This document shows positions 4,215 through 24,284 of a stretch of 58,683 bases of DNA, in pieces. The translations under genes and the position numbers were made by a program. How positions within the stretch are numbered: position 1 is the first letter of the stretch; every line of letters begins with the position of its first letter. Origin of the DNA: a virus (taxonomy: Duplodnaviria > Caudoviricetes); the IMG/VR virus record IMGVR_UViG_3300027754_002641, positions 1-58,683 of that record; one strand, written 5' to 3'. The notes below the pieces were generated by a model. The model saw nothing but the letters and a program-made list of their open reading frames with translations, did not search any database and was not told the origin of the DNA.

Positions 4215-5351
4215 ATGAAATCCTGCACACGTTGCCTCAACACCGAGACGGCTGACACGATCTCATTCAACAAAGATGGGGCATGTAGCGTCTGTGTTCA
4301 GGTTGACCATAAGCTGACGGCGGTTGATTGGAACGAGCGCAAGATGGATTTGCACCGGCTCATCACCACGGCCCGTGCGCGCAATGGGCAGTACGATTGC
4401 ATTGTTCCGTTTAGCGGCGGCAAGGACTCGACGTATCAGCTTTGGTATGTGGTGACGCAGTTGCGATTGAGGCCGCTGGTTGTGCGATATAACCATTGGG
4501 GCAACCGTCCGCAGTTGGAGCGGAACAATGCGCGGGTGTTCAAACAATTGGGCGTTGAGGTGTTGGACTTCAAACCGAATTGGAAAGTTGTGCAGGCAAC
4601 GATGTTGGAGGCGCTGACGCGCAAGGGGGACTCCTGCTGGCATTGTCATACTGGGGTGTATTCGTTTCCGATGCACATGGCGATCAAGTTCGATACGCCG
4701 CTTATTTTTTGGGGAGAGAGCCTTAAGGAATACCAATCGTGGCTGGACCCAACTGCGCTGGAGAATGTTGACGAGGTGCGGTTTAACCGGGCGATGAATT
4801 TGGGGATGACTGCGGACGATATGTGGGAGTTTATCAAGGACTCGAACGCCAGCCTGGAACGGCGCGATTTGCATTGGCACGCGTACCCGCCGAAGGCTGA
4901 GTTGGATAAGTTGGGTGTGCAGTCGATTTGTTTAGGAGATTACATCCGGTGGGATACGCAGGGTCAGGTAGCGATCATTAAGGAGCACCTTGGGTGGGAG
5001 GGTGATGTTGTTGAGGGCATCCCGCCGGAGTTTGATTACGAGAAGATTGAGTGCCAGTTCCAGGGCGTTCGGGATTGGCTGAAGTACATCAAGCGCGGAT
5101 TTGGGCGGACGAATCATTTAGCGAACATTGAGATACGGCATGGCCGTATGACGCGGGACGCGGGTGAGAAACTGGCGCGTGAATACGATGGTAAGGAACC
5201 GGCCAGCTTGGGGTGGTTTTTGCAGACGGTTGGGATTACGCGGAATGATTTCTATGAGATTGCGTTGAGCCATGTGGTTGACCCGTGGGTGTTTGAAGGG
5301 TCTGCGTTTGAAACAGGGCCGGAGTTGCCGGATTTCAAACAATGGGTTTGA
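4215..5351 (+). CDS. N-acetyl sugar amidotransferase (WbuX/PseA/PtmG family)
   Basis: N-terminal CxxC...CxxC, YDCIVPFSGGKDS PP-loop, CWHCH, KRGFGR. Confidence 0.9.
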   Translation: MKSCTRCLNTETADTISFNKDGACSVCVQVDHKLTAVDWNERKMDLHRLITTARARNGQYDCIVPFSGGKDSTYQLWYVVTQLRLRPLVVRYNHWGNRPQLERNNARVFKQLGVEVLDFKPNWKVVQATMLEALTRKGDSCWHCHTGVYSFPMHMAIKFDTPLIFWGESLKEYQSWLDPTALENVDEVRFNRAMNLGMTADDMWEFIKDSNASLERRDLHWHAYPPKAELDKLGVQSICLGDYIRWDTQGQVAIIKEHLGWEGDVVEGIPPEFDYEKIECQFQGVRDWLKYIKRGFGRTNHLANIEIRHGRMTRDAGEKLAREYDGKEPASLGWFLQTVGITRNDFYEIALSHVVDPWVFEGSAFETGPELPDFKQWV

Positions 5352-5998
5352 AACGCCGGATCATTGCGAAGTTCCTGATCGAGGACGGCAAGCTTGTTAA
5401 GTACAAGCAGTTCACTCAAGCCCGCCGCACGGCTGGTAACGCCGTGTCTACGGCGCGTACATATGAAGACCTACGTGTCGATGAGATGTACTTCTGCGAC
5501 CTTGGGGTGATTGACCCGGCCATGATACGGGCGGTGACGGCAGATGTGTTCACCCCTGTTACGGTGGCCGGGTCGATCCACTCGATGCGGCAGGTAGACG
5601 AACTGATCCAAGACAGCGGCGCGGATAAGGTGGTCATTCTGCACCGCGCTCTGGCCGAGGCGGTTGCCCAAAAATATGGGCAGCAGGCTGTGGTGTGGCC
5701 TATTGACTATCACACGAAGTGTGTAGAAGATGTTCCAGATTGCGCGGGGGAAGTTCTGCTAACGGACATTGATCGCGACGGCATGGGCAAGGGATTCGAC
5801 TTGGACGTATTGAAGAAGCGGTGGGATGTGCCGGTTATCATTGCCGGTGGCTGCGGGAAGCTGGATCACGCTTTGCAGGCATTCAACGCTGGCGCGGACG
5901 CTGTTGCCATTAGCTCCATGTTTTTTTTCACTGACAAGAGTCCGATTAAGCTCAGAAGCTGGCTTGCCAGCGAGGGCGCGAATGTGAGGAACGTGTGA
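5342..5998 (+). CDS. hisF: HisF-like cyclase-family protein (WbuZ/HisF2 type)
   Basis: GLKRRII, GADKVVI, GEVLLTDIDRDGMGKGFD, PVIIAGGCG; adjacent to the amidotransferase. Confidence 0.85.
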   Translation: MGLKRRIIAKFLIEDGKLVKYKQFTQARRTAGNAVSTARTYEDLRVDEMYFCDLGVIDPAMIRAVTADVFTPVTVAGSIHSMRQVDELIQDSGADKVVILHRALAEAVAQKYGQQAVVWPIDYHTKCVEDVPDCAGEVLLTDIDRDGMGKGFDLDVLKKRWDVPVIIAGGCGKLDHALQAFNAGADAVAISSMFFFTDKSPIKLRSWLASEGANVRNV

Positions 5999-6279
5999 CC
6001 AACGAACCGACTGAGATGGAGTTGAGGGTGGCGCACGCGATATATGAACGAGCCACTGTAATGCCAAACGGTCAACTTCATTTGATGAAGAAGAAACCGT
6101 GGGAAAAACTTCAGAACATCAGCAGAGTAAAATATCTGAACGATGCCCGTGCCGCGATTCGGGCGATGCGGGAGCCGACAACGGAGATGAAAGATGCTGG
6201 TCATCCCGAAGATGGCCCACTTAAACCATATTTTGCGTGGACAGCTATGATCAACGCAGCCTCGCCGCAGGAGGAGTAG
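5995..6279 (+). CDS. Phage hypothetical protein (EPTEMELRV...AIRAMREPT family)
   Basis: GTG start overlapping upstream stop; paralog at 50105-50383. Confidence 0.65.
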   Translation: MTNEPTEMELRVAHAIYERATVMPNGQLHLMKKKPWEKLQNISRVKYLNDARAAIRAMREPTTEMKDAGHPEDGPLKPYFAWTAMINAASPQEE

Positions 6280-6801
6280 GTGATAGCCTCGCTCCCCATC
6301 CACAAATACGTCTGGGTTGATAGCAGCCATATCCGCACCAATGGCGTTGGCTTTGAGCCAGCCGTGTGGTTTGGCCTAGTCAGCCAGTATGGCCGCGCTT
6401 GGGGTCTGAACGTGATGTTGGAGTGCGGCGCAATTTACCGCAGCCTTCCTCCTCACGCGGTGGCGTTCCGCAAAGACCCAGAGCCGTGGACGATTCAAGA
6501 CGCACAGCTATGGGATTGTTACGCCGACAAATTTCAACTCCACGAATATGTCTACCTACGTGAGGCCCGTGTGAAGACCGGCAAACACAATGGCGTCTAC
6601 CTGTTCACCGCAGCCTTCATTGGAGATGCATTCACCCGCACACCTGAGCAGGGCAAGGAGTTTAGCTTCATCGAGTTGGAGAATGGCCGGTTAACGATCC
6701 AGCCGACGAACCGTACTTTGTTTGAAGACAGGTCATTCACGGTGGATACGGGTGTTCCGAAAGACTTGATGACGCAGACAAGAACATGGTCATGCGAATG
6801 A
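6280..6801 (+). CDS. Conserved phage hypothetical protein
   Basis: 173 aa, AGGAG RBS, abuts upstream stop. Confidence 0.7.
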   Translation: MIASLPIHKYVWVDSSHIRTNGVGFEPAVWFGLVSQYGRAWGLNVMLECGAIYRSLPPHAVAFRKDPEPWTIQDAQLWDCYADKFQLHEYVYLREARVKTGKHNGVYLFTAAFIGDAFTRTPEQGKEFSFIELENGRLTIQPTNRTLFEDRSFTVDTGVPKDLMTQTRTWSCE

Positions 6802-6938
6802 TCCCCGCCAAGTTCATCTGCCTGACAGATCACCCGCAGAACGTCCGATGGGGTGAGGGTTGCGGTAGAGAGTGGGTTGGGACTGGTGTGCGCGGTTGTC
6901 CGTTCTGCGGCGCGCTTTGGGTGAAGAGAATCAAATGA
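6798..6938 (+). CDS. 46-aa Zn-ribbon-like protein (not in ORF track)
   Basis: MIPAKFICLT...GCGREW...GCPFCGALWVKRIK; ATGA overlaps at both ends. Confidence 0.55.
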   Translation: MIPAKFICLTDHPQNVRWGEGCGREWVGTGVRGCPFCGALWVKRIK

Positions 6939-8023
6939 CTTTGTGGCCATATCATTCTGAAGACGAAATCAGCGCGGTAGCTGATGTGCTTCGTTCCGGT
7001 AAGACGAACTACTGGTCCGGCCCGAACGGGCAAGCGTTCGAGGCGGAGTTTGCTGCGTATACCGGGGCGAAGCACGGTCTTGCCGTTACCAACGGCACGA
7101 CGGCGCTGGAAGTTGCGCTTCATGGTTTGCGAATTGTGCCGGGGTCTGAGGTGATTGTTCCGTGCCGGACGTTCATGGCGACGGCGAGCGCGGTTATCAC
7201 CGAGGGCGCTCGGGTGATTCTGGCGGACATCGACCCGGCGACATTGAACGTGACGGTCGAGACGCTGGAGGAGCGGCGCACCACGAAGACGGCGGCCATC
7301 ATCGTTGTCCACTACGCCGGGCTTCCGTGTGACATGAAGGCGATTCGCGAGTGGGCGGACTTCCACAAGATCAGGATCATTGAGGACTGCGCCCACGCCC
7401 ACGGCTCGCGCATTGACGGGCAGCATGTCGGCACGTTTGGCGACATTGGGTGTTTCTCGTTCTGCGTTGGGAAGACCATGAGTACGGGCGGCGAGGGCGG
7501 CATGGTGATTACCAACAATGAGTGGGTACATCGTCGGATGGCTGCACGGCGCGATCACGGGCGGTATCAGATGGTCGGGTCCAAGGACATGACGCAATTC
7601 CAGTGGACGGTTGAGGAGTTTGGTACGAATTTGCGTATGACCGAGATGCAATCCGTCATTGGCCGGTTGCAGTTGAAGAAGCTGGACGGCTGGGTGAACC
7701 GGCGCAATCAGATCGCGACGGCGTATGACAATATTCTTGGCGGCATTCCGGTGCCGCATGGTCAGGTGCATGGCCGGTATATGTATATGTCGTTTGTGGA
7801 TGACCGCGATCGCAAGATGATTGCGTTGCAGGGCATGGGTGTGGCAGCGCGATTGGGCGGTTGCCCCAATATCGGCCATGAGGCCGTGTTCAAGAACGGT
7901 GCCGCGAAGTGCCCCCAGGCCGATGAGATTGGTTGTAGAACGTTGTCTCTGCCGGTGTACCCGACAATGACTGACCGCGATGTTGGGTTGGTCCTGAGCG
8001 CGCTGGAGAAGGTATGCGTTTAG
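6935..8023 (+). CDS. DegT/DnrJ/EryC1/StrS sugar aminotransferase (PglE/LegC role)
   Basis: NGTTAL, IIEDCAHAHG, FSFCVGKTMSTGGEGG PLP-lysine motif; start 6935 chosen by coupling. Confidence 0.92.
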   Translation: MTLWPYHSEDEISAVADVLRSGKTNYWSGPNGQAFEAEFAAYTGAKHGLAVTNGTTALEVALHGLRIVPGSEVIVPCRTFMATASAVITEGARVILADIDPATLNVTVETLEERRTTKTAAIIVVHYAGLPCDMKAIREWADFHKIRIIEDCAHAHGSRIDGQHVGTFGDIGCFSFCVGKTMSTGGEGGMVITNNEWVHRRMAARRDHGRYQMVGSKDMTQFQWTVEEFGTNLRMTEMQSVIGRLQLKKLDGWVNRRNQIATAYDNILGGIPVPHGQVHGRYMYMSFVDDRDRKMIALQGMGVAARLGGCPNIGHEAVFKNGAAKCPQADEIGCRTLSLPVYPTMTDRDVGLVLSALEKVCV

Positions 8024-8487
8024 ACGATCAATGCCTTCAACTCTACCGGCTCGCCCGCGCTGCATGGGCGAGGGGCGATGTTGAAGAGGCTTGTAGACTG
8101 TATGGCAGGCTCCGTGCCGAACACGGGTGCGAGCTTTTCTATGAGGTCAGTCTTCCGCCGGTACATTTGATGTTGGTGCATCCCATTGGGACTGTGCTGG
8201 GACGCGCTACGTACCACGACTATTTGTGCGTCTACCAGAACGTCGGCGTTGGGTCTGACATCGACGGCAACCGGCCTACGATCGGTAGGGGCGTTGTGCT
8301 GTACCCCGGCGCTAAGGTGCTGGGTAATACCATCATTGGGAACAACGTATTCATCACCGCCAACACGGTGGTGCAGAATGTTGTTGTGCCGGACAACAGC
8401 GTCGTGTTCCCAGATGTTAATTCATGCAATTGGAAGCCCACCAAGCGCGATGTTATCCGCGATATTTTCAAGGTGACGAATGAGTAA
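8014..8487 (+). CDS. Hexapeptide-repeat acetyltransferase (serine acetyltransferase-like)
   Basis: HPIGTVLG, YQNVGVG, PTIGRGVVLYPGAKVLGNTIIGNNVFI. Confidence 0.8.
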   Translation: MRLDDQCLQLYRLARAAWARGDVEEACRLYGRLRAEHGCELFYEVSLPPVHLMLVHPIGTVLGRATYHDYLCVYQNVGVGSDIDGNRPTIGRGVVLYPGAKVLGNTIIGNNVFITANTVVQNVVVPDNSVVFPDVNSCNWKPTKRDVIRDIFKVTNE

Positions 8488-8641
8488 GCACTTAAAAAAG
8501 ATGCGGATCAACATTACGATCACGCCGGATTTGCTAAAGCGGATTGATAAGGCTGTGACGCCGTATGAGCGCAGCCGGTTTATCAACGCGGCCTGCCAAG
8601 AAGCTCTCGATAAGATTGAAGCGGGTAAGGGGTCAAAATGA
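8480..8641 (+). CDS. Ribbon-helix-helix DNA-binding protein, 53 aa (not in ORF track)
   Basis: RINITITPDLLKRIDKAV...RSRFINAACQEAL; overlaps upstream gene end and is ATGA-coupled to neuA. Confidence 0.7.
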   Translation: MSKHLKKMRINITITPDLLKRIDKAVTPYERSRFINAACQEALDKIEAGKGSK

Positions 8642-9339
8642 GCGTTCTGTATCTCATCACAGCACGGGGCGGTTCCAAGGGCGTACCGGGGAAGAACCTG
8701 CGTAAGATCGGCGGGATGTCTCTGGTGGCGTGGAAGGCCAACGCGGCCAAGCAGGTTATCACGGGCAACGACCGGCTGGTTATCTCGACCGAGTGCCCCG
8801 AGATTCAGAAAGAGGCTCTTCGCAATAATGTTGAGGTGCCCTTCACTCGGCCAGCCGAGTTGGCGACCGACACGGCATCCAGCGCGGACGTTATCAAACA
8901 TGCGCTGCGTGCGCTGAACACTTACCACGACACTGTGGTTTTGCTGGAGCCGAGCGCGCCGTTTACGACGCCGGAACATTTTATAACGGCGCTGACGATG
9001 AAAGAGGCGAAGGACGCGCATTTGATTGTTGGGATGAAGCACACGGAGCCGCATACGACTTTTATCGGTGAGCAGCCCAATGATGATTTTGTAACGCCCA
9101 TCATTGTTAAGATGGACCGCGTTGGCCGCAATCTGCGCCGCCAGGATTTGCGTCAGGAGTGGACGATGAACGGCGCGTTGTACGTATTCGACACGGATAT
9201 GTTTATGGAAACCGGCAGCATTTACGGCGGAGCGCGCAATTACGGTTTGCTTATGGACCGCTGGAATAGTATTGAGATTGATACTCTGTACGACTTGGAA
9301 ATGGCTGAGTACGCCCACGGCAAGGGGTACGTGTTTTGA
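8638..9339 (+). CDS. neuA: CMP-nonulosonate synthetase (acylneuraminate cytidylyltransferase)
   Basis: ARGGSKGVPGKN, RPAELATD, NGALY, SIEIDT. Confidence 0.92.
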   Translation: MSVLYLITARGGSKGVPGKNLRKIGGMSLVAWKANAAKQVITGNDRLVISTECPEIQKEALRNNVEVPFTRPAELATDTASSADVIKHALRALNTYHDTVVLLEPSAPFTTPEHFITALTMKEAKDAHLIVGMKHTEPHTTFIGEQPNDDFVTPIIVKMDRVGRNLRRQDLRQEWTMNGALYVFDTDMFMETGSIYGGARNYGLLMDRWNSIEIDTLYDLEMAEYAHGKGYVF

Positions 9340-10028
9340 CGTTTATCATTGCGGAAGCTGGGATAAATCATTGCGGGTCTTTGGACCGCGCATTGAAGAT
9401 GGTCGAAGTCGCGGCGGACGCGGACGCTGACGCGGTTAAATTCCAGTCATTCACGGCGTCGAAGCTTGGGTATGACGCTGATGTCGTGAAGTGGCTCAGT
9501 GGCATGGAGTTGTCCAAGGACGACCACTACAAGCTTAAGGCCAAAGCAGAGCGTTGTGGGATTCAGTTTATGTCCACGCCGTTCAGCGAGGAGTGGGTGG
9601 ACTTCCTTGTTGAGATTGGCGTGAAGCGGCTGAAGATTTCATCCGGCAAGGCCAAGGAGCCAGCGTTCGTTGATTACGCCAGAAGGACCGGCCTGCCGTT
9701 AATCATCAGCACCGGCATGATTAATTACGCGCAGATGTTGGCTGTGACATGCCCAGAAGATTGGGTTCTCTATTGCGTGTCGAAATATCCGACGCCTCTC
9801 AACAAGGTTGATTTCAGGAACTTGTCCAGGCTTGAGAAGCTGTTCCCCATATGGGGGTTCTCGGATCATACGGTTGGGCACGGCGCTGCGGTTATTGCAG
9901 CCGCTTCCGGCGCGAAGGTGATCGAGAAGCACTTCACGATGGACCGGAAATTATTCGGGCCGGATCAAGTATGCAGCCTTGAGCCGGATGAACTGAAGCA
10001 GATGATTACGGAGATACGATCGGTATGA
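9336..10028 (+). CDS. neuB: Nonulosonate synthase, NeuB family (no C-terminal SAF domain)
   Basis: FIIAEAGINH, DAVKFQ, STPF, SDHT, IEKHFT; TTG start. Confidence 0.92.
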   Translation: MTFIIAEAGINHCGSLDRALKMVEVAADADADAVKFQSFTASKLGYDADVVKWLSGMELSKDDHYKLKAKAERCGIQFMSTPFSEEWVDFLVEIGVKRLKISSGKAKEPAFVDYARRTGLPLIISTGMINYAQMLAVTCPEDWVLYCVSKYPTPLNKVDFRNLSRLEKLFPIWGFSDHTVGHGAAVIAAASGAKVIEKHFTMDRKLFGPDQVCSLEPDELKQMITEIRSV

Positions 10029-10942
10029 TCCGCGACATTGACCTGAGAGATTTGCTGCCGCGCAGTCATGTCGTTCGCGATATGACGACGGTTGCTGAAA
10101 TGTTGAGGGGCAAGCGTGTTGTCGTGACCGGCGCGGGCGGGTCGATCGGGTCTGAGTTATCGCGACAGATCAGCCGGTTTTATCCGAAGGAATTGGTGCT
10201 GGTCGATAACTGCGAGTTCAATCTGTATTCGATCAGCGAGCAGATACCGTCCGCGACCGCGATTTATGCAGACATCAGGGATTCAAATTCCGTTTGCTTG
10301 TTCATTGGGAACAAAGCCGACCAGATTGTTTTCCATGCGGCTGCGATGAAGCATGTGCCGCTGGTAGAGGAAAACCAGGCAGAGGCCGTAAGGACTAACA
10401 TCTTAGGCACAACGAATGTTGCCGTGGCGTGTTTGAAGGTCAACACCCACCGGCTCGTTATGATTTCAACGGACAAGGCTGTTAAGCCGACTAGCTTTAT
10501 GGGCAAGACCAAGCGCGGGGCGGAGAACATTTGCCGGGAGGCTGGGTATACAGTTGTCCGGTTCGGCAATGTGCTCGGCTCTTCCGGCTCGGTTGTCCCG
10601 CTGTTTGAACGCCAGATTAAGAATGGTGGCCCGGTTACGGTGACGCATGAGGATGTTGAGCGGTACTTCATGTCGATTGATGAGGCTGTCAGTCTTGTGC
10701 TTCATGCGGCGACAGGTGAGCCGTCCACGTATGTTTTGGACATGGGCCAGCCGGTCAAGATCATGGACTTAGCGAAGGACATGATTCGCCTTGCGGGCAA
10801 GATGCCGGGGTCTGAGGTCGAGATAAAGATTGTGGGGATGCGCCCCGGTGAACGTCTTCAGGAGGAGTTGTTCTACGACTCAGAAGTTGTCGAGAAGTTC
10901 TCCGTGGACGGCATATGGAGGGTGAGAGATGACGCAGCGTAA
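10025..10942 (+). CDS. NDP-GlcNAc 4,6-dehydratase (PglF/CapD catalytic domain)
   Basis: TGAGGSIGSEL, FHAAAMKHVP, ISTDKAV, VRFGNVLGSSGSV, RPGE. Confidence 0.9.
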   Translation: MIRDIDLRDLLPRSHVVRDMTTVAEMLRGKRVVVTGAGGSIGSELSRQISRFYPKELVLVDNCEFNLYSISEQIPSATAIYADIRDSNSVCLFIGNKADQIVFHAAAMKHVPLVEENQAEAVRTNILGTTNVAVACLKVNTHRLVMISTDKAVKPTSFMGKTKRGAENICREAGYTVVRFGNVLGSSGSVVPLFERQIKNGGPVTVTHEDVERYFMSIDEAVSLVLHAATGEPSTYVLDMGQPVKIMDLAKDMIRLAGKMPGSEVEIKIVGMRPGERLQEELFYDSEVVEKFSVDGIWRVRDDAA

Positions 10943-11546
10943 TGTGCTGATTACGGGGAGCGCCGGACACCTTGGGCGTGCGCTGCGGGCTGCGTTTGAG
11001 GCGCAGGGGGATGTTGTGACGGGTGTTGATACGCACAATGCGGAATTTTTATGTGACCTAGAAAGCATGACTCCTGTCGGAAATATTTACAAACATTTTC
11101 CAACTGACAAGTTCGACATTGTTGTTTGCAATGCCAAACTTAAAAGCTGGATTTCTCATAACCGGCTTGCGGGCTTTGCCACATCCTCCATCATCAACAT
11201 CGCCTCCATCTACGGCGCTCTCGGCCCCGATCCCATGATGTACTACGGCACGGAGATCGAGCAGACGCCCGCATGGTACGCCGCTAGTAAGGGCGCGATG
11301 ATTGCGCTGACAAAACACCAGGCCACAACGCTGGCTCCTGTGCGGAGCAATGCCATCATCCTTGGCGGCATCTTCCGCGACCACAGCGACGTTTTCCGCG
11401 AGCGGTATGAGGCTAAGGTGCCACTGTGTCGCATGGCGACTGAGCAGGACGCGGTAGACCTGTGCCTGTTCCTGGCGAGCGATAAGGCGAGCTACATCAC
11501 TGGCGCGTGTATCCCGTGCGACGGCGGACTGAGTGCAATGGCATGA
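10929..11546 (+). CDS. Short-chain dehydrogenase/reductase (PtmA/ElaC-like)
   Basis: TGSAGHLG, NIASIYG, YAASK, SYITG...DGG. Confidence 0.85.
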   Translation: MTQRNVLITGSAGHLGRALRAAFEAQGDVVTGVDTHNAEFLCDLESMTPVGNIYKHFPTDKFDIVVCNAKLKSWISHNRLAGFATSSIINIASIYGALGPDPMMYYGTEIEQTPAWYAASKGAMIALTKHQATTLAPVRSNAIILGGIFRDHSDVFRERYEAKVPLCRMATEQDAVDLCLFLASDKASYITGACIPCDGGLSAMA

Positions 11547-11836
11547 CGATGAACGAATCGGAAATTTTGGATAAGATTGACGACACAAAATCCAGAAAGA
11601 GAGTTGCCGAGCGCGAGCTTAGTGTTTTTGACGAATCCATTATTACCGCCAACATTTATTCTGATCGTCTGACTGTCGCGAAGTTGAGAAGCGGGTGGAA
11701 AAGAGTCAAAGCTGCAAAAAAGCTAAGAGAGCCGTTTCAAAAAAATGTTGAGCAAATCAGCGTTGATCTTTTTTGTCTAAGGGCTGAGTTGAACCGGGTC
11801 ACTAACCTGAAGAAATATTTAAGATCGCGGAAATGA
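11543..11836 (+). CDS. Hypothetical basic/coiled-coil protein
   Basis: ATGA overlaps at both ends; lower GC. Confidence 0.6.
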   Translation: MTMNESEILDKIDDTKSRKRVAERELSVFDESIITANIYSDRLTVAKLRSGWKRVKAAKKLREPFQKNVEQISVDLFCLRAELNRVTNLKKYLRSRK

Positions 11837-12387
11837 CTGATATTGCCGTAGCCATCATTGGGAGCGGTAGCCATGCGAAATTATTGCAGAATTTTTTCGA
11901 TGGTAAGGCCGTTCTTTGCGCGCCGTCTGCGGTGCCGAAGGACACCTTTGTCTGTATCGGTATCGGGAATGTACCGGAAATCGGTAAAAGCGATTTGAAG
12001 ACAAGGCGTACCATTTATCAAAAGTTTGAAAACCGGATGCTTGGTGTTCAATATAAACATTCGGTAATTCTTGGGAACGTCCACGACAGTTGCCAGATCA
12101 TGCCGGGTGCGATCGTTAACCACGGTGCGAATGTGCATGAAAACGTTATTCTCAACACCGGCTCGATTGTCGAGCATGACTGCTCGATCGGCGCTCATTG
12201 CCACATCGCCCCCGGTGCGGTTGTGCTTGGCGGTGTCCGCATTGGGGAAGAGACTCATGTCGGCGCGAACAGCGTTATTTTGCCGGGGATGAGAATCGGT
12301 CGCGGGTGTGTTATCGGGGCTGGCGCGGTTGTGACTGATGATATGGATGATTACCAAACTTGGATCGGGCATAAGCTCTATGAGTGA
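11833..12387 (+). CDS. neuD: Sugar acetyltransferase, NeuD/PglD family
   Basis: IIGSGSHAK, ILNTGSIVEHDC, hexapeptide repeats, IGAGAVV. Confidence 0.88.
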   Translation: MTDIAVAIIGSGSHAKLLQNFFDGKAVLCAPSAVPKDTFVCIGIGNVPEIGKSDLKTRRTIYQKFENRMLGVQYKHSVILGNVHDSCQIMPGAIVNHGANVHENVILNTGSIVEHDCSIGAHCHIAPGAVVLGGVRIGEETHVGANSVILPGMRIGRGCVIGAGAVVTDDMDDYQTWIGHKLYE

Positions 12388-13399
12388 TTTCAGCCAAGTC
12401 GTTGTCGTATCCCCCACCCGCGCTGAAGACGGGCCGCTGAAGTCTGTGATCGCGGAGATGCCGGGATGCTCCGTGGCCCAGTTTGATTCAGAGGGTATGT
12501 CGCCCGATGTCGCTGTGGCCCGTGCTATTACGTACTTTACGGTTGTCTTCAAATCTAACAACCCGAAGCTGGTTGTTGTGCTAGGCGACCGCTATGAGAC
12601 ACATGCGGCGGCGCTCGCGGCGCACTTTTTGCGGATACCGATTGGGCATATTCATGGGGGCGAGACGACGACGGGGGCGTTTGACGATGCGTTGCGGCAT
12701 GGGATTACGCATATGGCGGGAAACGACGGGCTGCACTTTGTGGCGCACCATCCTGCGTGGCTGCGCGTCATGGACATGGTGCCGTTTGCCAAGAATGTTC
12801 ATACGTTCGGTGCCCCCGGCCTCGACACCATCGCGCAAGGGAGCGCAACGCGGGGCCAGAAGGGATGGCGAAAAATTATGGGAGTCAAGACGATTGTGGT
12901 GAGCTATTACTCCGAAACATGCTCGCCCGATTGCGGTCTGGCTAACCTTGAATCAATGCTAAAGGCATTGGTTAAATATACAGGCGATCACGCGATCTTC
13001 TTTAGCCGGGTGAATAACGACCCCGGCTCGGATGCTATTGAGGACGGCATCAATGCTTTTATCAAAACGTATCCAACGTCCGCTTCTTGGATTTCTCCCA
13101 ACACCCGCGAGCAGTACCTGCATCTGCTGGAGCACGCCGTTTTTGCAATTGGCAACTCTAGCTCGCTGGTGATCGAGTGCCCGTGGATTGGGGTGCCGAG
13201 TGTGTTGGTGGGGCTACGCCAGGACGGTAGGCCGATGGCGAACTCTGTGTTTCAATCAAACTATGGCAGCGTCACTGAAACCGAAGCCGCAATTAACAGT
13301 GCGATGGTATTCACCAAGGCGTTTGGCCCCATCTACAAAGGCGGCTCTGCCCACAAGATCGCCGGAGTCATCAGGGGGTGGCTAGATGAGAAAGCCTGA
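12380..13399 (+). CDS. neuC: Hydrolysing UDP-GlcNAc 2-epimerase family (NeuC/LegG)
   Basis: TRAE, LGDRYE, HIHGGE, DDALRHGIT, GAPGLD, GNSSS, GLRQDGR. Confidence 0.9.
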   Translation: MSDFSQVVVVSPTRAEDGPLKSVIAEMPGCSVAQFDSEGMSPDVAVARAITYFTVVFKSNNPKLVVVLGDRYETHAAALAAHFLRIPIGHIHGGETTTGAFDDALRHGITHMAGNDGLHFVAHHPAWLRVMDMVPFAKNVHTFGAPGLDTIAQGSATRGQKGWRKIMGVKTIVVSYYSETCSPDCGLANLESMLKALVKYTGDHAIFFSRVNNDPGSDAIEDGINAFIKTYPTSASWISPNTREQYLHLLEHAVFAIGNSSSLVIECPWIGVPSVLVGLRQDGRPMANSVFQSNYGSVTETEAAINSAMVFTKAFGPIYKGGSAHKIAGVIRGWLDEKA

Positions 13400-13642: not shown

Positions 13643-14131
13643 ATGCTGTCGATCCCGGTTGATTTAGAAAAAGACGCTCTGTTTGTAAAAATCTTTTTGC
13701 AAACTGGCGATGCCTTGGATGCGTGTAAGCGCGCTGGATTTATTGTGCATGGGTACAACGATCGCATCGTTGCTGAATACCTACTCGACCGGCCCGACAT
13801 CCAAGTTGCGCTGCGGGCGGCTAAAGAATCAGAAACCCGCAAGACGGCTCCGGTAGACATAACTCGCGAAAGCATCATTTCTGATTTGGACGTTATCCAT
13901 CAGTCCGCGATGATCGAGAAAGACTATACGCCAGCGATCGCCGCTAAGAAATTGCAGGCAACTTTGATGGGGATGGTTCAGGAGAACATACAGATTACGC
14001 ATAATCTGGATGTGACCCGTATGACTGACGCGCAATTGGTACAGATGATTGCTGCCAAATCGCGGCAGGAAGACCTGAAAATGATTGATGTGACCCCGGT
14101 TGGTCTGGGGCAGATTAGTGTCTCAAAGTGA
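13643..14131 (+). CDS. Terminase small subunit
   Basis: HTH-like DACKRAGF, ITRESIISDL; directly upstream of TerL; AGGA RBS. Confidence 0.7.
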   Translation: MLSIPVDLEKDALFVKIFLQTGDALDACKRAGFIVHGYNDRIVAEYLLDRPDIQVALRAAKESETRKTAPVDITRESIISDLDVIHQSAMIEKDYTPAIAAKKLQATLMGMVQENIQITHNLDVTRMTDAQLVQMIAAKSRQEDLKMIDVTPVGLGQISVSK

Positions 14132-15662
14132 GCTAACTTTAGACCAACTGGCCGCAGAGCTTTTGCGGCGGCGTCATGCGCGAGAGAACTTCTCTGATTT
14201 CATGGCGTACATGCACGGCATAGCTCCGCCGCGTCATATGAAGTTCCTGTGCGATAAGCTGCAAGAGAAGATGGAGCGCAAGGGCGACCGTATGTTGGTC
14301 TGCTTCCCGCCGGGGCATGGAAAATCTACGGTTTCGTCGCTTTATTATCCGGCGTTCTATTTGTCCAAGAACCCGACGCACAACATCATTGTCGTCAGCC
14401 ATACGGAATCGTTCGCTGAACAGTGGGGCCGTAAGGTCCGCAATCTGATGATGTCGGACGAGTACAAGCTTTTGTTCCCAGAGATTGAGGTGTCGGACGA
14501 CAGCCGCTCCGCTGGCCGGTGGGACCTGAAGCAAGGCGGCTCGTACTACGCGACGGGCGTGGGCGGCACGGTGACTGGGCGAAGGGCAGACTGCGTAATC
14601 TGCGACGATTTGCTCAAAGGTATTGACGACGCAGAATCAAAAACTGTCCGCGATAATATGTGGGACTGGTGGGGCTCGGACTTATCAACCCGCCTGAAAC
14701 CTAGCGGCATCATGGTTGTGATTGGGACGCGGTGGCATCTTGATGACATCATTGGCCGGATCATGGCTGCTGAAAAGCAGAAGGGCGGCGACAAGTGGGA
14801 GAAGGTTGTTCTGCCCGCTTTGGCGAAAGAGAAAGACCCGTTAGGCCGCAAGCCCGGTGAGGCCCTTTGGCCGGAGTGGGAGAACGAGAAGGCCCTAGCC
14901 CGTAGACGGGCACAGCCGTCCATGACGGCCCGCCAGTGGGAAAGCCTGTACCAGCAAAGCCCGGTGCTTGAGTCCGGTAACGTCATCAAGCGCGAGTGGA
15001 TCAAGATTTGGAATCAGAAAGACCCGCCGAAGTGCAGCTTCATTGTCCAGAGTTGGGACACGGCGATCACGGCGAAGAACAAAAGCGCGTTTTCGGTCTG
15101 CCTGACCTTCGGTGTGTTTAAGGAAGACAAGACCGATTTGCCGTCCGTGATCCTGTTGTCCCGTTGGCGGGGGCGTGTGGATTACCCAGAACTGCGTAAG
15201 ATGGCCCAACGGCTCGCGATTAACTATCTGGACGACAACATGGAAGTTCCCATGTCTGGGAACCGTAAAAAGCCGCCGGATATGATCCTGATTGAAGCTA
15301 AGGCTACGGGCGAGCCGTTGATTGCTGACCTTAACCGGGCGGGGATTTCTGCAACCCGGTTTAATCCGAATAAGCACGGGGATAAGAACGCCCGCTTGAT
15401 GCTGGTTACGGACATATTTGAGAACGGTCGGTTTTATGCCCCCGGCCTGCCGCCGATGTACACGCTTCCAAGGCGGTGGGCGGAGGAATATATTAATTCC
15501 CTGCTTGCCTTCCCAGCGTCCGACTCAAGGGACGATGCCGACGCGACCAGCCAGGCTATTATTCGGATGAAGACCAGTGGCTGGATTAAAAACAGTTTAG
15601 ATGTTATTGATGAAGCACCATTTCGCTACACTGAGCGCGCATCTGGGGCACTTTACGGGTAA
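14118..15662 (+). CDS. terL: Terminase large subunit
   Basis: PPGHGKS Walker A, ICDD Walker B, GTRWHLDD, QSWDTA and DDADA nuclease motifs. Confidence 0.93.
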   Translation: MSQSELTLDQLAAELLRRRHARENFSDFMAYMHGIAPPRHMKFLCDKLQEKMERKGDRMLVCFPPGHGKSTVSSLYYPAFYLSKNPTHNIIVVSHTESFAEQWGRKVRNLMMSDEYKLLFPEIEVSDDSRSAGRWDLKQGGSYYATGVGGTVTGRRADCVICDDLLKGIDDAESKTVRDNMWDWWGSDLSTRLKPSGIMVVIGTRWHLDDIIGRIMAAEKQKGGDKWEKVVLPALAKEKDPLGRKPGEALWPEWENEKALARRRAQPSMTARQWESLYQQSPVLESGNVIKREWIKIWNQKDPPKCSFIVQSWDTAITAKNKSAFSVCLTFGVFKEDKTDLPSVILLSRWRGRVDYPELRKMAQRLAINYLDDNMEVPMSGNRKKPPDMILIEAKATGEPLIADLNRAGISATRFNPNKHGDKNARLMLVTDIFENGRFYAPGLPPMYTLPRRWAEEYINSLLAFPASDSRDDADATSQAIIRMKTSGWIKNSLDVIDEAPFRYTERASGALYG

Positions 15663-15697
15663 CTTAGCCCGTCTTTTTGTATTTTAGGCAAGTCTGT

Positions 15698-18112
15698 ATG
15701 GCGTTAGACCGCGCAACGACTTCTGGCTTAGGACTTAACGACATTACCGGCGAGAACGCTGGCGGCGAGGACGTTAATGTCCCGCAAGACGACCTGAAGT
15801 TTGCCGAAGGCGCGTCTTTTACACCGGAAGAGGACGGCGGCGAAACGATCGATTTCGCACCGGAAGAAGAAAGCACTGAGCCGGTGGCTCACGACGATAA
15901 TTTGGCTGAACATATGGAGGATTCCGACCTCCAGGCGATCGCCAACGACATTATCGACTACGTTAAGGAAGATCGGGACACTCGTTCCGACTGGGAAAGC
16001 ATGTTGTCCCAGGGCCTGACGTATCTTGGCCTGAAGATTGAAGATCGATCGATCCCGTTTAAGGGTTCTGCGGGCGTTTTTGACCCGATTTTGCTTGAAG
16101 CGGTTATCCGCTGGCACGCCACCGCCAGCGCGGAGTTGATGCCAGCCAGCGGGCCGGTGAAAACGCAGATTATCGGCCAGCCCAGCAGGGAAATGGAAGA
16201 GAAGGCGTCTCGCGTTAAAGAATTTATGAACTACTACCTGATGGAAGGTGCGCCGGAGTGGGTTGAGCAGAACGACCAGATGCTGTTCTGGCTCCCCCTT
16301 GTTGGCTGTACGTTCAAAAAGACCTACCAAGACCCAATCCTTAACCGGGTTGTCAGCCCATTTATCCTTCCACAGGATTTTGTTGTCTCGTTTAGCACTA
16401 CCGATTTAGATACCTGCCCGCGAGCGACACATATCATCTCGATGTCCCCAAAGGACATGAAGATGCGCCAACTCAGCGGTTTTTACCGCGATGTGGAGCT
16501 AAAAGACCCCACTTATGAAGCCGAAGACCCTTCATCTTTGGATGAAAAGTCTACCCAAACGCAGGGTTTGACCAAGCCAACCGAGTCGGACGAAGCCCCG
16601 TTTGAGGTGTATGAGTGCCACTTAGACCTTGATTTGAAGGGTTTTGAGCATAAGGACGACAACGGCGAAGAAGGCGAAGGGGAGCCTACGGAAACGGGCC
16701 TTCCGCTGCCTTACATCGTTACGATCGAAACCGGCTCGAAACAGGTTCTCTCCATCCGGCGTAACTGGAAGGAAGAAGACCAGACCTACGCCAAAATTCA
16801 GTATTTCACTCACTTCAAGTTTGTCCCCGGTCTGGGGTTCTATGGCATTGGCTACGCCCATATCCTTGGTAATACGGCCAAGGGGGCAACGTCCCTTCAG
16901 CGTCAGATGATAGACGCTGCTACGCTCGAAATGTTCCCCGGCGGACTCAAAGTTAAAGGCATGAGGGGGGACGACAACAACGTGATGATCGGTCCCTGCG
17001 AGTTCAGGGAGCTTGATACCGGCGGGATGCCAATCCAGCAGGCCATTATGACGATGCCCTATAAGGGTCCGTCGCCTGTGTCTATGGAGCTATGGCGGGC
17101 CACCCGTGAGAACGGCGAGCGGCTTGGCGGCATGACTGAGGTGGCTGTCGGAGAAGGCCGTCAGGACGCCCCTGTGGGCACCACAGTGGCCCTTCTTGAG
17201 GCGGCTAACCGAGCACAGTCCGCTACGCTGAAAGCGGCCCACCGGGCTTACAGGCGCGAATTTAAGCTGATCGCTGCCCTGTTCGGGCAGTTCCTGCCGG
17301 ATACGCCTTATCCGTGGCCGGTTGCCGGTGGTCCTAATTCGATCATGCGGACGGACTTTTCTGACCATATCAACGTCATTCCGGTCAGCGATCCCAATAT
17401 CACATCGTCTGCCCAGCGCATGATGCGGGCGGAAGCCCTGCTCAGGTTCGCGACCCAAGCGCCCGATTTGCATGACCAGTACCAGGCATTCCGGCAGATG
17501 TACGAAGAGATGGGTGTGGACACGAAGCGGATTGATGCGCTTCTACCGCCCAAGGCCGACGCGCAGCCGCTGGACCCGCTGACAGAAAACCAGAACCTGC
17601 TCAACGGCAAGCCTGTCAAAGTCGGCCCGTATCAGGACCATGACGCTCACATCTCTGCTCATACGTCGCTGATGAACCAGAAGCCGGACCTTGTAACGGT
17701 CCCGGCGCATATTGCTGAACACGAAGCCGCCAAGATGCGGGTTCAGGTTGAACAGATTCTGGGTCAATCGCTGCCCCCGGCTGGTCAACAGTTGCCGCCG
17801 GAAGTGGAAAACCAGATCGCTGTCTTGGTCGCCAAGGCGATGCAGCAGATTGCTCAGTCTCAAGGTGGCGAAGACCCCACCCCAGGCCAGATTGCTATGG
17901 AGCAAATCAAGGTCGAGGCCGCGAAGGTCCAGGCCAAGCTGCAAGAAATCCAAGCCAACACAAGCAGCAAGGCGTTTACGGAAACGCTTAAACTAAAATC
18001 TAGCCGCGAGGATCGCCTGAGCCGCGAGCGGATTGCTATGCTGAATTATCACAAGGACAGGCAGAAGCAATCGGACAAACCCAAGACATTCGGTACAAGG
18101 AGCACGTTCTAA
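15698..18112 (+). CDS. Portal protein
   Basis: ~800 aa after TerL; GCTFKK, PGLGFYGIG, APVGTTVALLE; coiled-coil C-terminus. Confidence 0.85.
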   Translation: MALDRATTSGLGLNDITGENAGGEDVNVPQDDLKFAEGASFTPEEDGGETIDFAPEEESTEPVAHDDNLAEHMEDSDLQAIANDIIDYVKEDRDTRSDWESMLSQGLTYLGLKIEDRSIPFKGSAGVFDPILLEAVIRWHATASAELMPASGPVKTQIIGQPSREMEEKASRVKEFMNYYLMEGAPEWVEQNDQMLFWLPLVGCTFKKTYQDPILNRVVSPFILPQDFVVSFSTTDLDTCPRATHIISMSPKDMKMRQLSGFYRDVELKDPTYEAEDPSSLDEKSTQTQGLTKPTESDEAPFEVYECHLDLDLKGFEHKDDNGEEGEGEPTETGLPLPYIVTIETGSKQVLSIRRNWKEEDQTYAKIQYFTHFKFVPGLGFYGIGYAHILGNTAKGATSLQRQMIDAATLEMFPGGLKVKGMRGDDNNVMIGPCEFRELDTGGMPIQQAIMTMPYKGPSPVSMELWRATRENGERLGGMTEVAVGEGRQDAPVGTTVALLEAANRAQSATLKAAHRAYRREFKLIAALFGQFLPDTPYPWPVAGGPNSIMRTDFSDHINVIPVSDPNITSSAQRMMRAEALLRFATQAPDLHDQYQAFRQMYEEMGVDTKRIDALLPPKADAQPLDPLTENQNLLNGKPVKVGPYQDHDAHISAHTSLMNQKPDLVTVPAHIAEHEAAKMRVQVEQILGQSLPPAGQQLPPEVENQIAVLVAKAMQQIAQSQGGEDPTPGQIAMEQIKVEAAKVQAKLQEIQANTSSKAFTETLKLKSSREDRLSRERIAMLNYHKDRQKQSDKPKTFGTRSTF

Positions 18113-21084: not shown

Positions 21085-21582
21085 ATGGGTCGTAAACCTC
21101 GTAGTTCTGAAGCCCGCGACAGCAACACGCGCGCTGCGGAGTCTCGTCAAGAAGCCAAGACAACTCACCAATCTCGCTTTTACATTCCGCCGAATGTTAT
21201 TCCGCGTGGCGTGACTTATGCGTGGGTCGCCGTGGCATTTGATAACGCCGGTACGTTTAATAAGGATAATTGGAACAATAAGTTCCGCGCTGGCTGGCGT
21301 CCGGTGCCGCGCGATCGCCATCCTGAATTGTTTCCGCCTGTGCCGAATATCGGTTTCGGTTCTGACGACGACCGTTATATTAATGAGGGCGGACTTATTC
21401 TTTGTGAAAAGCCAACGGTAGATGTCCGGCGCGATCGCGATGCGCTGGAACGTCTGGCACGGCAACAGATGGAAGGGCAGAAATGGACGCAGGCACAGGG
21501 GGCCAATCCGTTTGCACAGACCATGCCGCGCTTTGATGAGTCTAAGACTGAGTTTGGGCACTCTGCCCAGTTTAAGGAATAA
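21085..21582 (+). CDS. Conserved head-region hypothetical protein
   Basis: YAWV, GWRPVP...HPE, GGLILCEKP. Confidence 0.7.
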   Translation: MGRKPRSSEARDSNTRAAESRQEAKTTHQSRFYIPPNVIPRGVTYAWVAVAFDNAGTFNKDNWNNKFRAGWRPVPRDRHPELFPPVPNIGFGSDDDRYINEGGLILCEKPTVDVRRDRDALERLARQQMEGQKWTQAQGANPFAQTMPRFDESKTEFGHSAQFKE

Positions 21583-21586
21583 ATAC

Positions 21587-21622
21587 GGGGTGGCTGGGGT
21601 TAAGGAACCCTGGCCCACCTTT
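21587..21622 (+). terminator. Long GC hairpin, possible terminator
   Basis: GGTGG-CTGGGGTT-AAGG-AACCCTGG-CCCACC followed by TTT. Confidence 0.45.
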
Positions 21623-21722
21623 CCCTTGCCGGAGGAGTGACGGGGCCAATCCTGGCCACCCCACCATGATAAGGGGGCTTACAACGCCTCTGAATTGTGG
21701 TAATTTAAGTATTAATTGCGAT

Positions 21723-21823
21723 CCTGCAACGCAGGTTATCGACGCCAATCACGTATTTGGCCGGGTTATTAGACCCGTTATCGAAGTGCAGTCACGTATC
21801 TGCTCCGTGCCGTCGCAACGGCA
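21723..21823 (+). ncRNA. Candidate cis-regulatory structured RNA (tandem hairpin units)
   Basis: Two copies of hairpin-TTATCGA-stem[TCACGTAT loop] with different but pairing stems. Confidence 0.5.
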
Positions 21824-21870
21824 ATCAGTGATTTTCGCACCGTTTAGGGTGCATCTGACAGGAGCAAAAC

Positions 21871-22467
21871 ATGGCTTACGGCGCGAGCGGAGGCTTTGGC
21901 CTTCAACCGCTTAATAGCGGTAACGGTGTTACCTTCAATGGCATCACCAATCAATACAATCTTCCGGCGACGGGTGGACAGAGCATTTTCCAGGGCGACC
22001 CTGTGGCTCTTTCGACCGTTGGCGTGATCGTCCGAGGCACCGCGTCCATTCCGGCGCTTGGTGTCTTCCAGGGCTGCAAGTTTCAGGACACCGCCGGTGT
22101 CTGGCAGTTCACCAACTACTTCGCTGGCGCGACGGCTTTCCTTGCTGGCAACACGCCGGTCGCACTCGTCATCGACGATCCGATGGCCCAGTACACCATC
22201 ACAGAGGGTGATGCGACTGGCGCTTCCGGTACTCCGCTTACGTCTGCCGCCCCCGGCCTGAACGCCAACTTCGTTTACACGGCGGGCAGCACGCGTACCG
22301 GCCTTTCTGCCGTCACGCTGAACAACGCTACGGCGAGCACGGCTTCCAGCCAGAATCTGCGAATTACTGCTCTTGATCCCCGTGTCGGAAATGCGGTTGG
22401 CGCGTTCGCCAACTGGGTTGTCCAAATCAACAACGGCCAGCGTTCCGCTGGCACGCCGCGTCCTTAG
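21871..22467 (+). CDS. Capsid decoration/minor capsid protein
   Basis: FGLQP, IFQGDPV, GVFQGC, VIDDP; strong AGGAG RBS; precedes the MCP gene. Confidence 0.7.
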   Translation: MAYGASGGFGLQPLNSGNGVTFNGITNQYNLPATGGQSIFQGDPVALSTVGVIVRGTASIPALGVFQGCKFQDTAGVWQFTNYFAGATAFLAGNTPVALVIDDPMAQYTITEGDATGASGTPLTSAAPGLNANFVYTAGSTRTGLSAVTLNNATASTASSQNLRITALDPRVGNAVGAFANWVVQINNGQRSAGTPRP

Positions 22468-22491: not shown

Positions 22492-23397
22492 ATGACCATT
22501 AATACCAGTCAAATCCAGCAGCTTCTCCGCCCCGGCTTGGCAGAAGTGTTCGGTGATTATCCGATGTACCCGGCTGAATATACCGAAATCTTCAGCACCC
22601 ATACTTCGGACAAAGCAGTCGAAATCGAAGTCGAAATGAAGCTGCTCGGGCTTGCGGCCACTAAGGCCGAAGGCGCTCCGACGCAGTTCCAAGACATGGG
22701 ACAGCGCGTAATCAGCACCTACTACCATCGCTACACCAGCGTTGGCTTTATGATTACTCGCCAGGCGATGAAGGATAACCTTTACGAGTCGCAGTTCCCG
22801 CAGCAGGCGCAGTCTCTCCGTAACTCGATGCTGCAAAGCAAAGAAGTTAACGGCGCGTCTGTTATCAACAACGGCTACTCGGCATCGTTCCCCGGCGGCG
22901 ATGGTGTGGCGCTCTTCTCGACCGCTCACCCGATCGACACCGGCACGTTCGCGAATACGCCGTCCGTTCAGGTGGACCTGAATGAATCGTCTCTGCAAGA
23001 TGCGATCGTAACCATCTCGCAGTTCCGCGATCAGGCTGGCCTCATCACGATGACCAAGCCGACCAAGTTGATCGTTCCGCCGCAGCTTCAGTTCACGGCG
23101 GATCGTATCCTGCACTCGCAGTTCCGCACTGGTACTGCGAACAACGACATTAACGCCGTGTACAATATCGGCGCTGTGCCGCAGGGCTATCGGGTCAATC
23201 ACTTCCTGACCGATACCAACGCCTGGACCTTGATGACCGACGCCCCGAATGGTCTGAAGCACTATGTCCGTGAAGCTCTCGAAACGGATGTTTTCACTGA
23301 CTTCACCAGCGATAACCTGCTCGCGAAGGCCATCGAACGGTACTCGTTCGGCTGGTCTAACTCGCGTGGCGCTTATGGTAGCTCTGGCGCTACCTAA
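22492..23397 (+). CDS. Major capsid protein
   Basis: LLRPGL, GDGVALFSTAHP, LIVPP, NDIN, NHFLTD, ERYSFGW; strong RBS; terminator follows. Confidence 0.88.
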   Translation: MTINTSQIQQLLRPGLAEVFGDYPMYPAEYTEIFSTHTSDKAVEIEVEMKLLGLAATKAEGAPTQFQDMGQRVISTYYHRYTSVGFMITRQAMKDNLYESQFPQQAQSLRNSMLQSKEVNGASVINNGYSASFPGGDGVALFSTAHPIDTGTFANTPSVQVDLNESSLQDAIVTISQFRDQAGLITMTKPTKLIVPPQLQFTADRILHSQFRTGTANNDINAVYNIGAVPQGYRVNHFLTDTNAWTLMTDAPNGLKHYVREALETDVFTDFTSDNLLAKAIERYSFGWSNSRGAYGSSGAT

Positions 23398-23426: not shown

Positions 23427-23462
23427 GGCCATCGTGCCGCAAAGGGTGCGGTGGCCTTTTTC
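23427..23462 (+). terminator. Rho-independent terminator
   Basis: GGCCATCGTGCC-GCAAAG-GGTGCGGTGGCC-TTTTT. Confidence 0.8.
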
Positions 23463-24246: not shown

Positions 24247-24284
24247 GCCAGGGCACACACCGCCGTGCCCTGGCCTTTCCTTTC
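24247..24284 (+). terminator. Probable terminator
   Basis: GCCAGGGCAC-N8-GTGCCCTGGC-CTTTCCTTT. Confidence 0.6.

Follow-up and report, generated by a model that had tools for sequence, protein, structure and literature searches.

A conserved leader element of tandem hairpins preceding capsid genes in an uncultured freshwater phage lineage

The stretch of DNA analysed here, hereafter the window, is the whole of IMG/VR virus record IMGVR_UViG_3300027754_002641 (58,683 nucleotides; Duplodnaviria, Caudoviricetes), a linear viral record of 58.7 kb with an estimated completeness of ~81% that represents an uncultured freshwater phage lineage. Its plus strand carries a head and tail module, in which the genes for a large terminase (14100–15662) and an SU10-type portal (15677–18112) are followed by several proteins without assignment, then by the gene for a 198-amino-acid (198-aa) protein (21871–22467; phrog_37556) and by the major capsid protein gene (22492–23397; Phage_capsid_4/Mu gpT-like). 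The 198-aa protein is possibly a capsid cement or decoration protein, its closest named Atlas clusters being phage cement proteins at only 0.81–0.83, which we treat as a lead only. Directly before its gene lies an intergenic gap of 288 nucleotides (nt; 21583–21870), close to the ~290 nt estimated in an earlier note made on this DNA from the sequence alone, and this gap holds the element that concerns us: a row of hairpins and linkers that is very probably a conserved, structured leader RNA acting in cis.

For 21723–21823 the earlier note had described two tandem units, each consisting of a hairpin, the linker TTATCGA and a second hairpin with the loop TCACGTAT, with a fifth hairpin after them, and direct reading of the sequence confirmed this arrangement together with every string and coordinate given for it. 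All parts lie on the plus strand. The first unit comprises H1 (CCTGC-AAC-GCAGG, 21723–21735), whose stem has 5 base pairs (bp) and whose loop is variable, placed ~10 nt downstream of the inferred transcript start; linker L1 (TTATCGA(C), 21736–21743, with TTATCGA at 21736–21742), whose core CGA is invariant; and H2 (GCCAA-TCACGTAT-TTGGC, 21744–21761), with 5 bp and an 8-nt loop in which CG is invariant. The second unit abuts H2 directly and is made of H3 (CGGGT(T)-ATTA-(G)ACCCG, 21762–21777; 5–6 bp, variable loop), linker L2 (TTATCGA(AGT), 21778–21787, with TTATCGA at 21778–21784), in which AUCG is invariant, and H4 (GCAG-TCACGTAT-CTGC, 21788–21803), the weakest hairpin, with 4 bp here but, in most relatives, a fifth that closes the stem as G-U. 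The hexamer GCTCCG (21802–21807), unchanged in 19 of 19 close versions and a candidate for the role of anti-Shine-Dalgarno (hereafter anti-SD), shares bases with the 3′ arm of H4 and leads into H5 (TGCCGT-CGCA-ACGGCA, 21808–21823; 6 bp). The element extends beyond these limits, since two further helices and an upstream promoter-like site belong to it: RNAalifold predicted H7 (TCAG, 21825–21828, with CTGA, 21855–21858) enclosing H6 (GCACC, 21837–21841, with GGTGC, 21848–21852). H7 ends 2 nt before the ribosome-binding site (RBS) GGAG (21861–21864) that serves the start codon of the 198-aa gene (21871–21873). This RBS lies 38 nt past the fifth hairpin, which corrects the spacing of ~50 nt proposed earlier.

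Within the window, the composite motif TATCGA-N(4–12)-TCACGTAT occurs twice, both times at the element (expected 0.00, 100 shuffles), while TCACGTAT alone occurs four times against 1.02 expected; exact-motif searches of the window returned no other site in leader position. The minimum-energy fold of 21715–21830 contains all five hairpins with z = −2.0, and 5 of 200 shuffles fold as well, a result that is suggestive of structure rather than decisive. Energies of H4 range from −4.2 to −8.9 kcal/mol and are not clearly better than those of shuffles (median fraction 0.10). On its own the sequence thus outdoes shuffles only modestly, and it is the comparison with relatives that decides.

We gathered 53 loci from viral contigs by way of the capsid protein and 18 more from metagenome contigs by way of the 198-aa protein. 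Every locus with a capsid protein at least 89% identical to that of the window carries the element, and so do L094 and, weakly, L026 (65%), both of them more distant. From 44 matches we drew 20 distinct leader sequences, including that of the window, and 19 leaders were used to build a covariance model of 171 positions and 33 pairs. A search of the relatives with this model, which had been proposed as a check of the prediction, recovered the same architecture in all 20 distinct versions: each locus has exactly one match and each related record one full copy, in every case on the plus strand with its end at the 198-aa start codon, and in the window this is the sole site that scores. The leader of L026, left out of model building, was found at 13.7 bits (E = 0.028).

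The earlier suggestion that linker and loop stay constant while the stems differ yet still pair, as expected of selection on RNA or single-stranded DNA structure, agrees with the behaviour of these homologues, which keep both the pairing and the loop and whose compensatory changes exceed two kinds of control. Across the 33 pairs, 88.9% of the cells are paired, compared with 73.7 ± 0.9% in column shuffles and 33.5–42.4% when the partners are slid by one to three columns, and two-sided changes are seen in 20 pairs against 12.0 ± 1.9 in the shuffles; none of 500 shuffles reached any of the five covariation measures. Two-sided changes affect all five pairs of H1, compensatory changes all five pairs of H2 (with 100% of its cells paired) and two of the five pairs of H3 (97% paired). 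H6 adds one compensatory pair, and H7 is invariant in most versions as UCAG/CUGA, with UUCAA/UUGAA in L082 and AACAA/UUGUU in L026. The alignment behind these figures was fitted to the model, with H4 mis-registered in six rows and H5 in many (H5 57.9% paired), and for this reason each segment was also folded free of the alignment. By that check, a stem of 4 bp or more forms at each of H1 to H4 in all 20 of the 20 versions, and at H5 in 18 of the 19 segments that could be scored, the exception being L025, whose segment is clipped by the alignment and whose core fold contains a 7-bp hairpin at H5. The numbers of distinct stem sequences are 10, 8, 9, 6 and 8 for H1 to H5, respectively, beside an invariant CG in the linker core and in the H2 loop.

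Alignment of the units of all versions indicates that the two units are homologous copies, each with a hairpin, G-UUAUCGA and a 5-bp hairpin that carries (A/U)CG(U) in the middle of its loop; all 27 of the 27 aligned units keep the linker CG, whereas the flanking stems vary freely. There are five single-stranded, CG-centred motifs in the element: both linkers present AUCGA, the H2 and H4 loops present ACGU, and UCCG stands behind H4. We counted the invariant CG of the H2 loop and of the linkers, beside drifting stems, in favour of sequence-specific recognition. ACGU is missing from the H4 loop in 7 of 20 versions. The two linkers may pair with each other through the palindrome UCGA, which would close a junction around H2 and H3: of 19 comparable cores, 11 show this pairing in their minimum-energy fold, and every close version keeps at least four contiguous pairs, namely three invariant central ones together with an outer U-A (15 of 20 versions) or an inner U-A (6 of 20), whose distributions complement each other. 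In the window the two loops could kiss through their ACGU sequences, but in several relatives this complementarity is gone with no compensating change, so that kissing is unsupported, and inspection for linker-to-loop pseudoknots found no complementarity.

A rival reading of the duplicated units is a small-molecule or ion riboswitch, in which a tandem duplication would have produced a pseudo-two-fold aptamer whose UCGA linkers and ACGU loops pair the units on ligand binding, lock H4 and thereby free the RBS. In line with this, ~40 conserved unpaired nucleotides stand beside freely varying stems with CG invariant at all four sites, the linker pairing is kept as described above, and the overlap of the anti-SD with H4 resembles an expression platform; the guanidine-II riboswitch (PMC5558903) likewise combines two hairpin loops that kiss through C and G with an anti-SD. 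However, beads-on-a-string hairpins are more typical of protein-binding RNAs, the loops measure 7–10 nt and are not tetraloops, the loop-loop pairing is without covariation (the H4 loops of L004, L015, L016, L019 and L082 lose ACGU), and the three core linker pairs, being invariant, allow no covariation test. The element also controls no metabolic gene and matches no Rfam riboswitch at E up to 10. We regard a riboswitch as improbable. If it were one, it would be a new class controlling a virion structural operon, with coat synthesis timed or scaled to the state of the infected cell, and the tandem pseudoknot units of the sister clades described below would be alternative sensors.

The conserved pairing is best explained at the level of RNA. 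Among wobble cells, 40 are G-U and 13 are A-C, which points to the plus strand, and H4 closes with a G-U pair in 16 of 20 versions; this G-U excess, along with the place of the element between promoter and RBS, favours RNA over single-stranded DNA or the minus strand. Each hairpin is of course also an inverted repeat in DNA, promoters precede capsid genes in T7-like phages, and the string TTATCGAC...TCACGTAT loosely recalls the T7 promoter, so that an element working as DNA was considered: operator palindromes for a DNA-binding protein, a hairpin promoter read by an N4-like phage RNA polymerase, two paired T7-like promoters, an origin of replication or a site of packaging. Operators, however, conserve the sequence of the palindrome, whereas here the arms change and only the pairing is kept; the wobble bias to one strand and the absence of the composite motif anywhere else in the genome argue in the same direction, and a terminal packaging site is further opposed by a relative with direct terminal repeats, where ~10 kb separate the element from the closer end of the record (60.4 kb). 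A DNA-level role is for these reasons very improbable. The T7-like or N4-like promoter in particular was dropped, since the search for an RNA polymerase gene came back empty and a promoter would not be expected to have covarying stems. The possibility that the region is instead translated, as the 82-codon open reading frame (ORF) at 21666–21914 that the earlier note had named as a reason to abandon its reading, is slighter still and we consider it negligible: the frame is open in the window, L002 and L082, but carries one to five stops in the other 17 of 20 versions, its insertions and deletions are not multiples of three, and it has no family match.

Upstream of H1 we recognised a putative sigma-70-like promoter on the plus strand (21678–21706; −35 CTTACA at 21678–21683, a 17-nt spacer, TG at 21698–21699 and −10 TAATTT at 21701–21706), from which transcription would start near 21712–21714. 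Its hexamers score 8.5 in our custom scoring, and a score of at least 8.5 is found within 70 nt before H1 in 19 of 20 leaders, with the −10 hexamer 16–17 nt before the end of the scanned stretch in 15 of those 19; random 73-nt windows reach 8.5 in 9.8% of cases (n = 2000). A stricter promoter scan did not list the site at 21678–21706. Past the capsid gene, a strong intrinsic terminator-like hairpin on the plus strand (23427–23461, with the hairpin at 23427–23456; 12 bp, of which 8 are G-C, then TTTTT) closes the two-gene unit, and a second terminator-like hairpin follows at 24247–24274; beyond these, late genes in the same orientation extend for more than 20 kb, and promoter-like sites among them are few. 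A contig from a lake metatranscriptome, 100% identical over 21730–21909, joins the element to the coding start, at a depth of 2.5 and from a kind of library that can contain DNA as well as RNA. RNA-library run X19 yielded no contig on 21000–21729 and one that starts at 21730, which is no evidence either way given the very low depth and the fact that contigs cannot show transcript ends. From these sequence features, the unit is probably a short, highly expressed transcript with its own promoter, the structured leader, the cement-like 198-aa gene, the major capsid gene and a terminator.

A transcript so bounded could be served by a leader that merely protects it, with the 5′ hairpins and the 3′ terminator hairpin shielding the capsid mRNA from RNases that depend on the 5′ end, or marking an RNase site, and with no regulator acting in trans. 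Protection of mRNA by 5′ stem-loops is well established for the ompA leader and the leader of T7 gene 10, H1 starts only ~10 nt from the inferred 5′ end, the discrete promoter-to-terminator transcript would encode the most abundant virion proteins, and the sister clades have different hairpin or pseudoknot arrays at the same place, as if any stable structure sufficed. Yet such a stabiliser or processing element needs no invariant single-stranded sequence, while here the AUCGA linker, the loop ACG, UCCG and AAUCAG are conserved as the stems drift, and it leaves both the duplicated unit and the invariant GCUCCG facing the RBS unexplained. We hold it to be unlikely.

The same position directly downstream of a promoter-like site would suit a signal for processive antitermination, with the RNA acting on the polymerase either by itself, as HK022 put does, or by way of a phage protein, as a duplicated lambda nut would, and giving read-through into the tail genes. 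Each unit, as a conserved linear motif with a hairpin whose loop is conserved, recalls boxA and boxB; the two terminator-like hairpins and the long run of late genes behind them would supply something to override; and the 165-aa protein encoded immediately upstream has an arginine-rich N-terminus, which is a lead only. Against this, no N-, Q- or Nus-like protein was recognised among the ~75 ORFs of the window, the 165-aa protein is without an informative fold match and the element without an Rfam family match, a terminator after a coat gene commonly sets protein ratios and needs no override, and the element reaches the RBS and holds a complement to it, which points to translation. We regard antitermination, too, as improbable.

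That complement is the basis of the reading that we prefer, in which a structured 5′ leader of ~160 nt (~21712–21870, plus strand) would act in cis on capsid translation through an anti-SD switch and a factor; for this reading in full, predicted switch and factor included, we judge the chances to be about even. The first two bases of GCUCCG are the last two of the 4-bp H4 stem of the window (CTGC, 21800–21803), and its third base, U, pairs in most relatives as part of the G-U closing pair. When the leader was folded with 20 nt of coding sequence, the minimum-energy structure paired the RBS GGAG with CUCC in 17 of 20 versions, and in 16 of those 17 the partner was the CUCC of GCUCCG (L026 uses a CUCC in the H3 loop); L004, L019 and L017 were the versions without the pairing. 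Opening the RBS and start codon costs a median of 5.6 kcal/mol (range 1.5–9.7), and the mean probability that GGAG is unpaired lies below 0.04 in 16 of 20 versions, compared with shuffle means of 0.18–0.34. In L017 (2370–2385) the site has GTAG in place of the otherwise invariant GGAG, which may be a sequencing error or a natural down-mutation.

In the mechanism that we propose, the tandem units H1-L1-H2 and H3-L2-H4, H5, and H7 enclosing H6 would form a row of helices on the late capsid transcript. In a closed state, the 3′ arm of H4 and the adjoining CCG would be paired to the RBS, and in an open state the hairpin array would be complete, with H4 formed and the RBS free, so that whatever stabilised H4 and the tandem units as hairpins would leave the RBS open. 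The stabilising agent would most likely be a sequence-specific RNA-binding factor, and because the units are duplicated we propose that it is dimeric or cooperative, possibly aided by pairing between the palindromic linkers. The leader is thus predicted to be, probably, a factor-dependent translational switch that sets the output of cement and coat protein. Among the options raised in the earlier note (a protein-binding operator, a processing site or a new class of noncoding RNA), a cis-acting operator or switch is favoured, and because no terminator lies between the element and the coding region, we do not take it for a free-standing noncoding RNA.

Several observations weigh against this reading. 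The promoter is weak by consensus (7 of 12 positions plus TG) and its start point is a prediction only. The per-pair covariation counts are, owing to the mis-registered alignment, partly too high for H4 and too low for H5. The H4 loop occurs in eight forms, more than a strict protein site would suggest, and no RNA-binding protein or domain, antiterminator, sigma factor or RNA polymerase was recognised among the ~75 ORFs of a record that is ~81% complete. As regards the switch itself, only 11 of 20 versions have three or fewer of 60 shuffles as occluded as the natural leader (15 of 60 for the window), and occlusion of the RBS is not unusual for G+C-rich leaders. The bases of the anti-SD pairing are all invariant, so that covariation neither supports nor tests it, and the base 5′ of GGAG varies (A in the window, U in L019) without a matching change in GCUCCG.

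The Rfam comparison that the earlier note had called for gave no family for the element. With Rfam 15 (4227 models) at gathering thresholds, neither the whole window nor any of 20 related loci gave a match, and at E up to 10 the region 21560–21900 gave two chance-level matches only, both on the opposite strand and upstream of the element. A strict pattern search of viral contigs returned 21 stretches, of which 17 belong to this phage group and 4 are chance, while 47 pattern matches in bacterial and archaeal genomes (596 Gb) included none that fits the model at E < 0.1; two partial model matches in relatives (E 0.22 and 0.38) are at chance level. The major capsid protein had no relative in a genome set of 185,579 species, and a search for cultured phage or prophage relatives found none, cultured phages showing only short similarity in the capsid gene. 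The element is, on this evidence, a new RNA family of a known general kind.

Among the relatives, some leaders appear to be mosaic. L007 (2095–2263) combines H1 to H3 of the L006 type with H4 and H5 of the window type, and a DNA contig of run X2 matches the window up to 21765 and continues with an H3 of the L003 type (break at window position 21766); recombination seems to shuffle leader units as modules. One record of 61.8 kb (G003) has two non-identical leader copies, one at each end (L148, 723–891, and L144, 61568–61737; 184.5 and 191.4 bits), which is most simply explained as a wrap-around assembly of two co-occurring strains. Sister clades with capsid proteins 54–69% identical (L023, L032, L034, L040, L042, L043, L044, L047 and L051) are without the element. 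At the same place, within ~220 nt upstream of their 198-aa gene homologue, they carry another, pseudoknot-like unit in one or two copies, in which the loop of a short hairpin is complementary to a stretch 4–8 nt downstream. Loop and tail of these units change together (GACAG/CUGUC, GACC/GGUC, GCGA/UCGC, UACCG/CGGUA and GACCG/CGGUC). The units have no Rfam match, and a descriptor search for them also gives many chance matches.

The remainder of the gap and its surroundings show further features. Downstream of the 165-aa stop codon and upstream of the putative capsid promoter lies a second conserved structured block (21587–21662), in which a 15-bp, G-U-rich outer helix (21587–21601 with 21648–21662) encloses the invariant 15-mer TTTCCCTTGCCGGAG (21620–21634). 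Two-sided changes occur in 7 of its 23 predicted pairs, including L082 with different outer arms, and an alternative fold consists of a hairpin and then TTTCCCTT, resembling the terminator-like site at 24247–24274; the 15-mer is unique within the window and the block has no Rfam match. The gene for the 165-aa protein (21085–21582), with its arginine-rich N-terminus, stands directly upstream of the leader region in all clades examined (26–78% identity). Its AlphaFold model has a mean pLDDT of 68.6 and gave no match below E = 1.5 against the PDB, and we dropped it as a candidate binding protein for want of an informative fold match, the rows for a KH domain (probability 0.04–0.08) being noise and the Atlas clusters unnamed. 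Elsewhere in the window are a sugar-nucleotide cluster of the nonulosonic (sialic-like) acid type at 4215–13399 (NeuB, a DegT-type aminotransferase, a cytidylyltransferase, a UDP-GlcNAc 2-epimerase, a Polysacc_synt_2 dehydratase and hexapeptide acetyltransferases) and, in the tail region, an ORF of 2271 aa (38922–45737) with no Pfam or PHROG match.

To our knowledge, the post-transcriptional regulation of coat proteins in tailed phages is understood only poorly, and for uncultured lineages hardly at all. The leader described here is unusually testable in this respect, as it combines covariation, a duplicated unit with invariant CG motifs, a complement to the RBS, and relatives with alternative tandem units, and point and compensatory mutations can be designed straight from the alignment. 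Should a factor or ligand be found, it would provide a new handle on late gene control and possibly a compact, portable part for translational control; should the leader turn out to be a stabiliser only, it would be one more among the thousands of structured leaders predicted in viral metagenomes. A catalogue built from IMG/VR (PMC10690425) reports 8495 novel covarying intergenic structures (candidate structured RNAs, csRNAs), 879 of them within 25 nt upstream of genes, among these five upstream of a major capsid protein family. These share with our element the source of data and the kind of object, and the catalogue may or may not already contain it: neither contig numbers nor a 22-nt string located it in the readable supplements of PMC10690425, and the accessible text describes no tandem-unit architecture or anti-SD for such an element.

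Several known systems share features with the leader. Repetition of a short motif in hairpin loops and single-stranded linkers is also seen in CsrB and RsmZ, in which the motif is GGA and the RNAs are trans-acting sponges, whereas the motif here is CG-centred and the RNA a cis leader. In lambda nut, a linear boxA element and a boxB hairpin are bound by the N protein, with its arginine-rich motif, and by host Nus factors, and in HK022 put, two promoter-proximal stem-loops make the polymerase resist downstream terminators without a protein factor. The resemblance lies in a promoter-proximal cis RNA with a conserved linear motif, stem-loops or both, the layout of linear motif and hairpin being present twice here; the differences are that no N-like or Nus-recruiting features were recognised in our element, that it stands in a late capsid context rather than in early operons, and that it holds a complement to the RBS. 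At phage translational operators and activator sites (the operators of T4 gp43 and gp32, RegA sites, and the site of Mu Com on the mom leader), a phage protein opens or closes structure at the RBS, and these sites resemble ours as short hairpins with specific loops near the RBS of a phage mRNA. They are, however, single sites with known proteins, whereas here there are two duplicated units and three further helices, ~60–140 nt upstream of the RBS.

The riboswitch guanidine-II, also named mini-ykkC, is described in PMC5558903 as a translational on-switch in which two similar leader hairpins, the C and G of whose loops pair mutually, work with an anti-SD. The likeness extends to two similar leader hairpins, loops centred on a self-complementary CG and, by prediction, an anti-SD that would compete with hairpins. 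Guanidine-II, in the same source, has ACGR tetraloops, whereas the loops here have 7–10 nt with a fourth base that is mostly U, and it has two conserved G-C pairs under the loop, whereas the closing pair of H2 is A-U in 10 of 20 versions and G-C in the other 10, and the next pair is A-U, G-C, U-A or C-G. It controls genes for guanidine carboxylase or SugE-type proteins, as described there, compared with capsid genes and a predicted anti-SD in our case; each of our units also has an extra hairpin and a conserved linker, and the Rfam model of guanidine-II does not match the element. By analogy, then, phage translational operators or activator sites and the guanidine-II riboswitch would be its nearest counterparts in working principle.

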